64,000 nucleotides of DNA, from contig CAZGAQ010000004.1 of assembly GCA_964523405.1 (NCBI GenBank), positions 76,984-140,983 of the forward strand, written 5' to 3'. This document shows positions 51,415 through 58,197 of this stretch, piece by piece. Positions within the stretch are counted from its first letter, which is position 1. Every line of letters begins with the position of its first letter. The notes beneath the pieces were generated by a model. The model made no database searches. It had not been told where the DNA came from and was given only the letters and a program-made list of their open reading frames with translations. The translations under genes and the position numbers were made by a program. This DNA comes from an uncultured Planctomycetales bacterium (GTDB lineage: Bacteria; Planctomycetota; Phycisphaerae; UBA1845; Fen-1342).

Positions 51415-51536
51415 CCCCCAATTTCCGCCATAAGCTACCCGCCCTCCGCCCCAACCCGCAACGGCCGGGGACCGGCGGAGGAATCAAGGCGGCCGGGGCG
51501 GGGTCGCGGCATCCACACATTGGCGGAATTTCTGCG

Positions 51537-51563
51537 GTGGAATCGGCACCGGGCGGTGTACAA
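51537..51563 (+). promoter_or_regulatory. candidate promoter GTGGAA-16-TACAAT for Kelch-like gene copy 1
   Basis: Conserved in position with TTGGAA-16-TAGAAT of copy 2, ~74 nt upstream of the start. Confidence 0.4.
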
Positions 51564-51636
51564 TGCCGCTGCATGGATCGGTGGTGGACTTCGTGGAATC
51601 ATCCGCAATGTGTCCGAAAAAGAGGGAGGCGCTTCC

Positions 51637-54897: not shown

Positions 54898-57264
54898 ATG
54901 AGCAAGGCGACCCAGAGGCGCGCGATGGGCTGGGGGCTCGTCGTGGTGTCGGCGGCGTTGTGCTTCGCCGGACCGCTGACGCAGCCGGCCGGCGCGCAGT
55001 GCGCGTGGCAGGCGGGGCAGAGCTATCCGGGGATAGAGGGGCGCGTGTACGCCACGGCAGTGTGGGATCCGGACGGCGCAGGGTCGCAGCCGGAGATGCT
55101 GGTTGTCGGTGGCGATTTCAGTGTCGTAGGGAATGTTGTGGCACGCAACATCGTGACGTGGAACGGGAGCTGTTGGCAGCCGCTGGGAGGGGGAACGAAT
55201 GCCATTGTGTTTGCCCTGACCGTCTACAATGGCGAGTTAATTGCGGCGGGCGCCTTCTGGGAGGCCGGCGGCGGATCGTGCAGCAAAGTCGCCCGCTGGA
55301 ACGGAAGCACCTGGCAGCCGCTGGGCGCGGGGACCGACGGCATGGTGTACGCCCTGACGGTCTACAACGGTGAGCTGATCGCGGGTGGCGCTTTCATCTA
55401 CGCCGGCGGCGTGAGGTGCGACCGCATCGCCCGCTGGAACGGAAATACGTGGCAGCCGCTGGGCGGGGGGACGATCGGAGCTGTGAACGCGCTGGCCGTG
55501 TACAACGGTAAGCTGTTTGCGGGAGGCGAGATTACTACGGCTGGCGGCGTGACGTGCAACCGCATTGCGCGCTGGGACGGAAGTACGTGGCAGCCGCTGG
55601 GCGTGGGGACAGACGGATATGTGAATGCGCTGGCCGTGTACGACGGCAAACTGATTGTGGGAGGCGCGTTCACTACGGCCGGCGGCACGTCGCGCGGCCG
55701 CATCGCCGGCTGGGACGGCGCGAGCTGGTTGTCGTTGGGATCCGGGATGGACAGCACGGTGACTGCTCTGGGCGTCCTCGGTTCGGACCTGATTGCCGGC
55801 GGGTGGTTTGCGACGGCCGGTGGGGCAACGTGCAGCCGTATTGCGCGCTGGAATGGCAGCTCCTGGCAGCCGCTGGGCGCGGGATTCGCCGGCACCAACA
55901 GCCGCGTGAATACACTAACGACATTCAACGGCGAGTTGGTGGCGGGCGGGACGTTCACGAGCGCGAATTCCACGGTCCTCAACAACATTGCCGTTTGGGA
56001 AGGCGACGCCTGGCAATCGCCGTGTGGGGGCTCGGGCAATTGGTTGACGGGCGCGAGACGCGTGACGACGTACAACGGCGACCTGGTCGCAGCGGTATCT
56101 TTCGTTGGCGACGCTGACGAGACCAGCACCGTGGCCCGCTGGAACGGCAGCGCCTGGGAACCGCTGGGAGCGGCGATGAACGGTTCCGTTGGTGCGCTGA
56201 CGGTCTACAACGGCGCGCTTGTTGCGGCGCGTTCCTTTCGCGTCGATGGCGGGCTTGGCGGCAGTGTGGTCCGCTGGAGCGGAAGCGACTGGGAACCGCT
56301 GGGAACCGGGATGGACAGTTACGTCGATGTGCTGACGGTCTACAACGGCGACCTGATCGCGGGGGGATGGTTCGAAACGGCCGGCGGAGTGCCGTGTCAC
56401 AACATCGCGCGCTGGGATGGCAGCGCCTGGCACCCGTTGGGAACAGGGGTTGACAGCGTCGATGCGCTGACAGTCTACAACAACGAGTTGATCGTGGGGG
56501 GGCCGCAATACGCTGGTAGCGTGATCTGCAACGGCGTCGCGCGTTGGAACGGCAGTTGGTCGAACCTGGGCAGCGGGACGTGGCAGCTCGGGGATGGGCG
56601 TCCGCCGTGCTGGTGCGGCAGTCCGACGTGCGACTGCGACCCGGGGCCGTCGGAGCCGGGCTGGGTGCAGGCATTGAGCGTCAGCAATGGTGAGCTGATC
56701 GTGGCAGGCCGATTCACGAGCGCCGGCGGCGTGACCTGTACCAACGTGGCCCGTTGGGACGGCAGCGCCTGGCATGCGCTCGGCACGGGATTGGGAGACT
56801 ACGGGCGAAACGTCATGGCGCTGACAACCTACAACGGCGAGTTGATCGCGGCGGGCGCCTTCATAGGTGGCATTGCGCGCTGGGATGGTGCCGCCTGGCA
56901 ATCTCTGGGAACGGGATTGGGCGATTCTACGGTGTGGGTGGAATCGTTGACGGTCCACGGCAACGAGCTGGTCGCGGCCGGCAAGTTCTCGAGGGCGGGT
57001 GAGCAGGTCTCGCGCCACGTGGCGCGGTGGAGCTGTCCGCCGCCGCCATGTCCGGGTGACGGGAACTGCGATGGCGCGATCAATTGGCGCGATATTGACT
57101 TCCTGGTTGCGGCGCAGAACGACAACGTGTCGGCGTGGACGGCGCTGTTCTCCGGGGGCAATCCTGCGTGTTCGTTCCTGGACCTCGATACGAACGCCGA
57201 CGGGCACGTGAATTGGCGGGACATTGACCCGTTCATTGCACTCATGAACACCACGTGCGGCTGA
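54898..57264 (+). CDS. giant secreted Kelch-like beta-propeller repeat protein with C-terminal dockerin-like tandem (copy 2)
   Basis: Start MSKATQRRAMGWGLVVVSAALCFAGPLTQPAGA, with ACGAGGGAGA RBS. ~16 repeats. Same C-terminal module as copy 1. Confidence 0.8.
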   Translation: MSKATQRRAMGWGLVVVSAALCFAGPLTQPAGAQCAWQAGQSYPGIEGRVYATAVWDPDGAGSQPEMLVVGGDFSVVGNVVARNIVTWNGSCWQPLGGGTNAIVFALTVYNGELIAAGAFWEAGGGSCSKVARWNGSTWQPLGAGTDGMVYALTVYNGELIAGGAFIYAGGVRCDRIARWNGNTWQPLGGGTIGAVNALAVYNGKLFAGGEITTAGGVTCNRIARWDGSTWQPLGVGTDGYVNALAVYDGKLIVGGAFTTAGGTSRGRIAGWDGASWLSLGSGMDSTVTALGVLGSDLIAGGWFATAGGATCSRIARWNGSSWQPLGAGFAGTNSRVNTLTTFNGELVAGGTFTSANSTVLNNIAVWEGDAWQSPCGGSGNWLTGARRVTTYNGDLVAAVSFVGDADETSTVARWNGSAWEPLGAAMNGSVGALTVYNGALVAARSFRVDGGLGGSVVRWSGSDWEPLGTGMDSYVDVLTVYNGDLIAGGWFETAGGVPCHNIARWDGSAWHPLGTGVDSVDALTVYNNELIVGGPQYAGSVICNGVARWNGSWSNLGSGTWQLGDGRPPCWCGSPTCDCDPGPSEPGWVQALSVSNGELIVAGRFTSAGGVTCTNVARWDGSAWHALGTGLGDYGRNVMALTTYNGELIAAGAFIGGIARWDGAAWQSLGTGLGDSTVWVESLTVHGNELVAAGKFSRAGEQVSRHVARWSCPPPPCPGDGNCDGAINWRDIDFLVAAQNDNVSAWTALFSGGNPACSFLDLDTNADGHVNWRDIDPFIALMNTTCG

Positions 57265-57453
57265 GAGTCGGCCGGATTCCACCAGACTGTTGAGCAGTGT
57301 CGCGGGCCTGAGATCGGGCTGGGCCCGGTCCTGCGCACCTTGGGTGCGCAGGCCAAGCCGGCCGCTCAGGCGCGGCGCGTGGGGGAATGCGGTAAGATGC
57401 GCGGGTTCCGGCGCTCGGAACAGGCGCGAGCGGCCGGGTTGGTGAGGCGGCAC

Positions 57454-58197
57454 ATGAGCATTCCCTATTCGGCCGGTGAGGCGTTGACGGTACAGGAGAT
57501 TCGCGAGCTCGACGTGCTGGCGATCGAGCACGTGGGGATTCCCGGGCTGGTGCTCATGGAGAACGCGGGGCGCGGGGCGGCCGAGTTCATCTATGGCACG
57601 CTCGTGAACCCGGCGGCGAGTCGCGTGGTGATCTTGTGCGGGGCGGGGAACAACGGCGGGGACGGGTTTGTGATTGCGCGGCACTTGCGGAATGCGGGGG
57701 TGGGGGCGACGCTGGGCGAGCGGGGCGGCGCGGCGGTCGACGTGGTTCTCACGGGGCCACCGGACAAGTCGCAGGGGGACGCGGGGACAAATCTGCGGAT
57801 TCTGCAGAACTTGGGCTGTGAGCTGGTGCGCGCGGACGAGACGGACGGGCTGGTGTGCGCGCGGACGCTGATCGCGCGGGCGGACGTGATTGTGGATGCG
57901 CTCCTGGGGACGGGGTCGACGGGGGTGCCGCGGGGCGTCATGGCGACGCTGATCGAGCTGGCGAACACGGCCCCGGGCGCACGGCGAATCGCGATCGACA
58001 TCCCCTCGGGCCTCGACGCCGATCGCGGCGTAGTGAACGAGCCGTGCTTCCGCGCGGCCGCCACAGTGACGATGGTGGCGGCCAAGGTCGGATTTGACAC
58101 GCCGGCGGCGCGCGGGGTGGCAGGGCGGGTGGTGGTGGTGGACATTGGGGCGCCGCGGGAGTTGATTCCGGGGCGACAGCGGGTGGGTGACACCTAG
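57454..58197 (+). CDS. nnrE: NAD(P)H-hydrate epimerase (YjeF N-terminal domain)
   Basis: LMENAGRGAAEFI...VVILCGAGNNGGDGFVIARHL, the hallmark of the YjeF-N family. Confidence 0.8.
   Translation: MSIPYSAGEALTVQEIRELDVLAIEHVGIPGLVLMENAGRGAAEFIYGTLVNPAASRVVILCGAGNNGGDGFVIARHLRNAGVGATLGERGGAAVDVVLTGPPDKSQGDAGTNLRILQNLGCELVRADETDGLVCARTLIARADVIVDALLGTGSTGVPRGVMATLIELANTAPGARRIAIDIPSGLDADRGVVNEPCFRAAATVTMVAAKVGFDTPAARGVAGRVVVVDIGAPRELIPGRQRVGDT

Follow-up and report, generated by a model that had tools for sequence, protein, structure and literature searches.

An apparent tandem pair of long-diverged DUF5122 repeat-protein genes, probably rebuilt by recent recombination at its 3′ end, beside nnrE and recA of an uncultured planctomycete

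We analysed a stretch of 64,000 nucleotides (nt), referred to here as the window, from a metagenome-assembled genome (MAG) of an uncultured Planctomycetales bacterium (assembly GCA_964523405.1, contig CAZGAQ010000004.1, positions 76,984 to 140,983). Two related genes for repeat proteins of the DUF5122 family, copy 1 and copy 2, lie there head to tail and adjoin nnrE and recA. We consider it probable that they form a real tandem pair of long-diverged genes for secreted proteins, that the 3′ end of the pair was rebuilt by recent recombination, and that the locus is still recombining. The two genes would be either old paralogues or captured alleles. The features that matter for this reading, in window coordinates, are the following.

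51489-51636, plus strand: promoter and 5′ untranslated region (UTR) of copy 1, with GTGGAA-16-TACAAT at 51537-51564, located by alignment with copy 2
51637-54141, plus strand: coding sequence of copy 1, 834 amino acids (aa), GTG start; Pfam DUF5122 53.7 bits, Rax2 72.7 bits
54064-54449, plus strand: R′, left copy of a 386-nt repeat, with 0 mismatches to 57187-57572
54331-54453, plus strand: truncated nnrE fragment of 40 codons, identical to the start of nnrE, with its TAA just beyond the repeat boundary
54450-54749, no strand: 300-nt spacer between the units, origin unassigned
54750-54897, plus strand: promoter and 5′ UTR of copy 2, with a promoter-like TTGGAA-16-TAGAAT at 54798-54825
54898-57264, plus strand: coding sequence of copy 2, 788 aa, ATG start; Pfam DUF5122 82.3 bits, Rax2 63.4 bits
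57187-57572, plus strand: R, right copy of the repeat, ending within intact nnrE
57454-58197, plus strand: intact nnrE (NAD(P)H-hydrate epimerase, YjeF_N), 247 aa; Pfam YjeF_N (PF03853) 146.6 bits

When the region from 50.5 to 59 kb was compared with itself by BLAST, unit 1 (51489-54449) and unit 2 (54750-57572) were recovered in head-to-tail order as two alignments: 51489-53799 against 54750-57039, with 74% identity over 2340 nt, and 53911-54449 against 57034-57572, with 94.6% identity. The E value of both was 0, which excludes chance. A first-pass annotation, made from the sequence alone, had already described two such units with a boundary inside nnrE, and our boundaries fell within 10 nt of the ones it gave. 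The left limit of the homology is sharp and lies at GCGGCCGGGGCGGGG (51489 and 54750), about 48 nt before the promoter-like -35 hexamer; the right limit, at 54449/57572, is inside nnrE.

Identity between the units changes from segment to segment, being 87% in the promoter and 5′ UTR, 88% in the signal peptide, 71% in the blades (the repeats of the encoded proteins), 80% in the dockerin-like part up to 54063 and 100% in the last 386 nt. The flanks had been described as near-identical, which holds for the 3′ end but not for the promoter and 5′ UTR. Both reading frames are intact and their products, which share one common architecture, have 59% amino-acid identity. By the Nei-Gojobori method the gene bodies differ with dS (synonymous divergence) 0.46, dN (non-synonymous divergence) 0.28 and omega (their ratio) 0.61, omega being close to 1 in some 60-codon windows; the proposal that the repeat-protein genes are diverging is therefore sound. 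The blades have also shifted register, since blades 3, 4, 7 and 8 of copy 1 best match blades 4, 5, 8 and 9 of copy 2, and the second-best BLAST alignment is displaced by the length of exactly one blade (3399 = 3261 + 138 nt). This indicates that blades were gained and lost, with the total still 14. The dS of 0.46, together with a non-coding 5′ flank diverged by 13%, indicates that the copies separated long ago. Outside matches reached at most 50% identity by BLASTP, and the identity of matched stretches to copy 1 was at most 57%, except for a 1244-aa multi-domain protein (P0015) with 62% over the matched stretch to copy 1 and 50% to copy 2 by BLASTP. The copies are thus each other's closest known full-length relatives.

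The left edge of the perfect repeat is sharp: the last mismatch lies at 54063/57186, and ten mismatches fall in the 30 nt that precede the block. R′ takes in 78 nt from the end of copy 1 (75 coding nt and the stop codon), the 189 nt between the genes and 119 nt from the start of nnrE. At the single variable site, 57219, R and R′ carry one base and L161, a contig of a sister strain that is described below, carries another. The block is therefore at least as young as the split from that strain and, judged by this comparison, must be recent. Copy 1 is indeed followed by a truncated nnrE, as the first-pass annotation had stated. The annotation had put the first 78 codons of nnrE into the duplicated part; the fragment is present, but it comprises 40 codons from the ATG homologous to that at 57454, the figure of 78 being counted from an upstream TTG. 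Homologues speak for the start at 57454, as do the two genes, of 247 and 40 aa, that are called in the NCBI record of the source contig; the 40-aa product is P0243. The identity of intact nnrE is clear from TIGR00197 as well (134.9 bits against a cutoff of 88.6). R′ duplicates the conserved nnrE leader, from which read-through into copy 2 would be possible.

Other strains provided the evidence that the locus is still recombining. With recA as the anchor, an exact RecA match led to two contigs that encode the identical protein, L161 (31.7 kb, from the Joint Genome Institute, JGI) and L162; a second contig with the same neighbouring genes as L161 was reported in the RecA look-up. Against the window, L161 shows 99.3% identity in the left flank and 100% in recA; its genes are, in order, PQQ, GH63 (a glycoside hydrolase gene), one DUF5122 (D60) gene, nnrE and recA. 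A comparison of copy number between strains, as suggested with the first-pass annotation, thus gave one hybrid gene in L161 against two genes in the window. The single gene of L161 consists of the copy-1 promoter and signal peptide followed by a copy-2-type body, with the breakpoint at 51718-51732. To the left of it 25 of the 29 copy-distinguishing sites are of copy-1 type, and to the right 503 of 560 are of copy-2 type (Fisher p = 2e-19). A contig from a different sequencing run (L167) is 100% identical to L161 over 3653 nt of body, nnrE and recA.

Divergence between these strains is patchy, amounting to 6% in the gene and 0.7% in the left flank. Copy 2 and the L161 gene have 94% nucleotide identity (dS 0.139), in patches that range from 82 to 100%. 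This pattern and the hybrid gene bear out the earlier suggestion of a recombination hotspot. We found no support for copy 1 as a donor of conversion tracts to the body of copy 2 or of L161, since the informative sites split evenly (60, 50 and 32) and form no runs; the absence of copy-1-type runs at the differences between copy 2 and L161 implies that the divergent patches were not copied from copy 1. In contigs from two further JGI samples (L164 and L165), which have 84-87% nucleotide identity to the window, the gene directly upstream of intact nnrE combines a copy-1-type Cys-rich module with a copy-2-type dockerin spacer. Scans of genomes and metagenomes with nnrE lacked the closest strains; in two relatives among the matches listed in them, L081 (nnrE 73% identical) and L001 (62%), nnrE is preceded by unrelated genes and not by a DUF5122 gene. 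By its nnrE, the organism falls near Phycisphaerae MAGs, and the nearest named match has 74% identity.

Two side observations concern the same contigs. Within nnrE, the segment 57675-58155 is about 10% diverged from L161 (46 mismatches in 480 nt), while 57112-57674 contains one mismatch in 563 nt and recA is 100% identical; the segment has the appearance of a short stretch imported by recombination from a lineage further away. L164 and L165, although from different samples, share their starting point, which falls in the last blade of the upstream gene and 611 nt before nnrE. L162, a contig from SRR15237811 that is 100% identical to 57851-59886, begins inside nnrE. Such repeated breaks of short-read assemblies at the locus are as expected for repeats or strain variation.

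From these data we infer two possible routes to the present 3′ end. In the first, copy 2 and nnrE would have served as the template for gene conversion or repair synthesis, which would have run past the end of homology and been joined illegitimately to the spacer. In the second, a second allele would have been integrated by a homologous crossover at about 54064/57187 together with an illegitimate joint at codon 40 of nnrE, that is, by homology-facilitated illegitimate recombination. Under either route the result would be a perfect direct repeat of 386 nt whose left edge is sharp and whose right end falls at an arbitrary point in nnrE; both copies of R would derive from the recipient's own sequence and would for this reason be identical. 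Exchange between the similar 5′ ends (promoter, 5′ UTR and signal peptide) would link the two-gene state to the one-gene hybrid. The hybrid of L161 may have arisen by a deletion through unequal exchange between these 5′ ends or, alternatively, by allelic replacement, two possibilities which are not distinguishable because the L161 body is not identical to copy 2. Blades would be gained and lost around a constant total of 14, and short imported patches would make the gene and distal nnrE far more diverged between strains than the flanks.

Several points weigh against this reading. That truncated nnrE, spacer and copy 2 adjoin one another is known from a single assembly, an NCBI MAG contig of 236 kb, and the other assemblies that extend across the locus contain one copy each. 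The body of the L161 gene is 6% diverged from copy 2 and is therefore not a simple deletion product of the arrangement in the window. Either one gene or two may be the ancestral state, the favoured explanation does not account for the 300-nt spacer, and the arrangement may not last, since deletions are to be expected at a perfect direct repeat of 386 nt.

One rival is a variant of the favoured explanation rather than a true alternative to it: an ancient tandem duplication in situ, in which gene conversion homogenises the ends while the blades diverge under selection. The distribution of identity (87-88% at the 5′ end, 71% in the blades and 100% at the 3′ end) conforms to it, as do the position of the copies as mutual closest known relatives and a perfectly conserved 39-nt stretch in their leaders. 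We nevertheless regard it as unlikely, since it explains neither why a functionless truncated nnrE is kept nor why the allele with the Cys-rich module lies directly beside intact nnrE in L164 and L165.

It is quite unlikely that the pair is an artefact of assembly, produced by the stitching in tandem of two strain alleles of a single-copy hypervariable gene or by the homogenisation of R during polishing. If haplotypes had been falsely duplicated, the GH63 flank would occur twice, whereas copy 2 is preceded instead by a unique spacer and by its own promoter, 87% identical to that of copy 1. The joint between truncated nnrE and spacer requires reads or k-mers that contain it, and the spacer leads only into copy 2, so that the tandem order would be the sole linear path through the assembly graph. 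Moreover, the hybrid of L161 shows that copy-1-type 5′ sequence and a copy-2-type body are both present at this locus in the population. The suspicion arises from the MAG origin of the contig, from the single copy in the other locus-spanning assemblies, from a perfect repeat that exceeds the length of short reads, and from the contigs of other samples (L162, L164 and L165) that break in or near the gene.

The explanation offered by the first-pass annotation, a single recent tandem segmental duplication of about 3 kb followed by fast diversification of the internal arrays with unchanged flanks, is highly improbable, because the head-to-tail order, the 100% identical 3′ block, the truncated nnrE that resembles a fresh duplication boundary and the fairly high omega between the copies (about 1 in some 60-codon windows) would suit it, yet one recent duplication cannot give both 0 differences in 386 nt and a dS of 0.46, which selection on the protein cannot produce, with 13% divergence in the non-coding promoter and 5′ UTR, nor does it agree with identity that steps at 54063/54064 instead of a uniformly low divergence, or with the 300 nt of unrelated sequence that part the units and leave no direct abutment.

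In the favoured explanation the genes code for secreted proteins, and this part of it depends on their architecture. Both copies exceed the Pfam gathering cutoffs for DUF5122 (PF17164; cutoff 27) and for Rax2, a C-terminal beta-propeller family (PF12768; cutoff 28.8). At E <= 0.01, DUF5122, Rax2, DUF6087 and ARF_AD were matched in both copies, Dockerin_1 in copy 1 and PCF11_RFEG_rpt in copy 2, and no NCBIfam family was matched by either. The N-terminus reads as a Sec signal peptide (a K/R-rich segment, GWGLVVVSxALC and PAGA|QC) and is disordered in the structure model. Each copy contains 14 blades, one N-terminal and 13 anchored on W-x-G-x(1-3)-W, which are mostly 46 aa (138 nt) long and carry W-x-G-x-W and YNGELIAGG motifs. 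The C-terminus, with two D-x-N-x-D-G-x-(I/V)-N-W-R-D-I-D loops, is dockerin-like: against Dockerin_1 (PF00404; cutoff 22.9) the C-terminal 119 aa of copy 1 scored 21.8 bits (E 2e-4), which is below the cutoff, and copy 2 scored 18.0, and the match to the PDB dockerin 6kg9 was weak (E 0.17). The signal peptide suggests that the proteins are secreted and, taken with the sub-threshold dockerin-like C-terminus, is consistent with the surface protein that had been supposed earlier.

An AlphaFold2 model of copy 1, built on an alignment of 16 sequences, had a mean pLDDT of 78 and a pTM of 0.68 and consists of regular, all-beta units of four strands. In a Foldseek search of the PDB it matched 2ymu first (E 4e-16), followed by two-propeller proteins, namely the periplasmic domain of BT4663, tandem WD40 proteins, PorZ and GH74; 2ymu is also the template that was used for DUF5122 modelling in PMC8078820. 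The model and these matches indicate that the repeats form a beta-propeller fold.

The proteins resemble Kelch propellers in that a four-stranded blade repeat of about 45-50 residues builds the propeller. The label "Kelch-like" of the first-pass annotation is nonetheless inappropriate, as no Pfam Kelch family was matched at E <= 0.01, DUF5122 and Rax2 being found instead, and Kelch is not named in the 50 listed Foldseek PDB descriptions, among which are WD40 proteins and sensor and surface proteins with two propellers. Nor are the proteins "giant" at 834 and 788 aa. These are their likely lengths; the difference in length that had been noted is real, but the earlier counts of 873 and 797 aa were made from the furthest upstream starts. 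It is due mainly to the following module and not to blade count.

53791-53910, plus strand: Cys-rich module of 39 aa, in copy 1 alone of the pair, giving 117 gap columns in the alignment

Copy 2, L161 and L167 lack the module, L164 and L165 have it, and a similar one occurs in a homologue (P0017) whose genomic context is not syntenic. A different Cys-rich insertion, W-C-W-C-G-x-P-x-C-x-C, was observed in blade 11 of copy 1 (53325-53400), of copy 2 (56565-56640) and of the L161 gene. The confidence of the AlphaFold2 model is low at this loop (residues 575-593), which may be a lineage-specific disulfide-rich or metal-binding loop.

DUF5122 relatives, some of which appear in other sources under the name "delta-60 repeat domain-containing protein", are numerous: the family has 36,031 cluster representatives at E <= 0.001, and a word-indexed search gave more than 7,700 matches. 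Many come from Planctomycetota and are likewise built of a signal peptide, a propeller and a dockerin-like tail. The two copies differ from known members of PF17164 in that they match no NCBIfam model and have outside relatives of at most 50% identity by BLASTP. We know of no function for the family, and our literature search found no functional work on DUF5122 proteins.

The GTG start of copy 1 (51637) aligns with the ATG start of copy 2 (54898), exactly as first described, and a GAGGGAG Shine-Dalgarno sequence precedes each. The promoter-like site was scored in copy 2, and that of copy 1 was taken as its equivalent. Neither copy looks like a silent cassette, because each has its own promoter-like site, Shine-Dalgarno sequence and start codon. 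The leaders share one further element.

51570-51608 and 54831-54869, plus strand: 39-nt element of the 5′ UTR, exact in both copies, with 0 matches expected by chance

A 30-nt core of this element is unchanged in L161 (6453-6482 of that contig), while the surrounding promoter and 5′ UTR are 87% identical between the copies. The 5′ UTR folds no better than shuffled sequence and there is no Rfam match at the element, which may be a site of protein binding or translational control.

Phase variation of the genes, which had been raised as a possibility, finds no basis in the sequence. The promoters and 5′ coding regions contain no simple-sequence tract, no inverted repeats bracket either promoter, and there is no recombinase or transposase among the called genes of the syntenic 21-kb locus of L161. 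The simple-sequence scan gave only a G8 run at 52839-52846 and G7 runs at 52983 and 56496, all deep in coding sequence, and no short-unit repeats; the run at 56496 is not a tract in L161. Runs of this length are at the lower limit for replication slippage, and there is no evidence that their length varies. We also considered whether the conserved 5′ leader and the 386-nt 3′ repeat might act as recombination handles of a cassette-like variation system, which we regard as very unlikely. Such a system, if it existed, would yield hybrids and copy-number variants of a secreted beta-propeller at appreciable frequency, and would be a planctomycete counterpart of recombination-based surface variation. 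The locus does resemble cassette or contingency loci for surface proteins in its secreted repeat protein, its diverged tandem copies with conserved ends and its mosaic alleles in close strains. In contrast to such loci, both copies have a promoter-like site, a Shine-Dalgarno sequence and a start codon, and there is no invertible promoter, tract or dedicated recombinase.

The homogenisation of tandem paralogues by gene conversion and the formation of hybrid single genes by unequal crossover are established processes. The locus is like tandem duplicates homogenised by conversion in its head-to-tail paralogues, its sharp-edged block of identity and the chimeric gene with a 5′ breakpoint in a relative. 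It departs from classic conversion in that the identical block extends beyond the gene into nnrE and stops there against unrelated DNA, which suggests an illegitimate end, left for example by homology-facilitated illegitimate recombination or by interrupted repair synthesis, rather than a two-ended conversion. The locus adds another case to a known type of event, from a gene family and a phylum that have received little study, and represents fairly ordinary evolution of a gene family.

DUF5122 is, however ordinary the process, one of the larger uncharacterised families of secreted repeat proteins in Planctomycetota, and the locus provides a concrete case of how such genes evolve, by tandem copies, blade turnover, gain and loss of modules, hybrids and short imports, the last occurring between strains that are about 99% identical in the flanks. 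The pattern suggests a diversifying pressure on the propeller surface, exerted for example by ligands, phages or grazers. The variation might have a role in the function of the protein. The locus could be useful as a strain-level marker, and users of assemblies should bear in mind that genes of this kind are places where contigs break or collapse.

The remaining features of the region are two flanking genes and a hairpin.

49036-51381, minus strand: left flank gene, a GH63/MGH1-like glycoside hydrolase, outside the repeat; Pfam MGH1-like_GH 153.8 bits
54207-54229, plus strand, repeated at 57330-57352: GC-rich hairpin CCTGCGCACC-TTG-GGTGCGCAGG after the copy 1 stop codon (palindrome pair I1)
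58381-59574, plus strand: recA, right flank gene; Pfam RecA 422.9 bits

The GH63 gene is divergent from copy 1 and is the left neighbour in L161 too. The hairpin is terminator-like but without a T tract, and the 139-nt region around it folds with a z-score of -2.5. The spacer between the units (54450-54749) has no match elsewhere in the window or in the 167 fetched loci; it contains no tRNA and no clear codon-position GC signal, and its open reading frames (ORFs) have no significant Pfam match. Rfam gave two weak matches in 51000-58500, neither of them credible and neither inside the spacer. Look-ups of exact products (copy 1, copy 2, nnrE, HtrA, GH63 and the 78-aa ORF of the nnrE fragment, with alternative and Met-substituted GTG and TTG starts as well) returned no match, though the look-up does not cover the source contig and the chosen starts may differ from the gene calls.

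An 8-mer, CGGGGCGG, was observed at 51494-51501, just inside the left boundary of unit 1, and at 57573-57580 in nnrE, directly after the right boundary. The pair could be a microhomology from the original illegitimate join; chance is also a possible origin because the genome has 66% GC, and the 300-nt spacer speaks against a direct join at this 8-mer.

Between 1 and 50 kb, all 2-kb bins have a negative GC skew of the top strand (-0.04 to -0.33), even over genes on the plus strand such as PQQ. The skew turns positive from the intergenic region between GH63 and copy 1 (about 51300-51500), where it is +0.23, declining to +0.03 by 64 kb. A scan for DnaA boxes found no site resembling one within about 9 kb of the switch, and the intergenic region is not AT-rich. 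The polarity of the skew is of the replication origin type (a minimum of cumulative skew), and the switch could lie close to the origin or be the place where an old inversion ended. An independent contig, L161, shows this switch too, at about position 6000.

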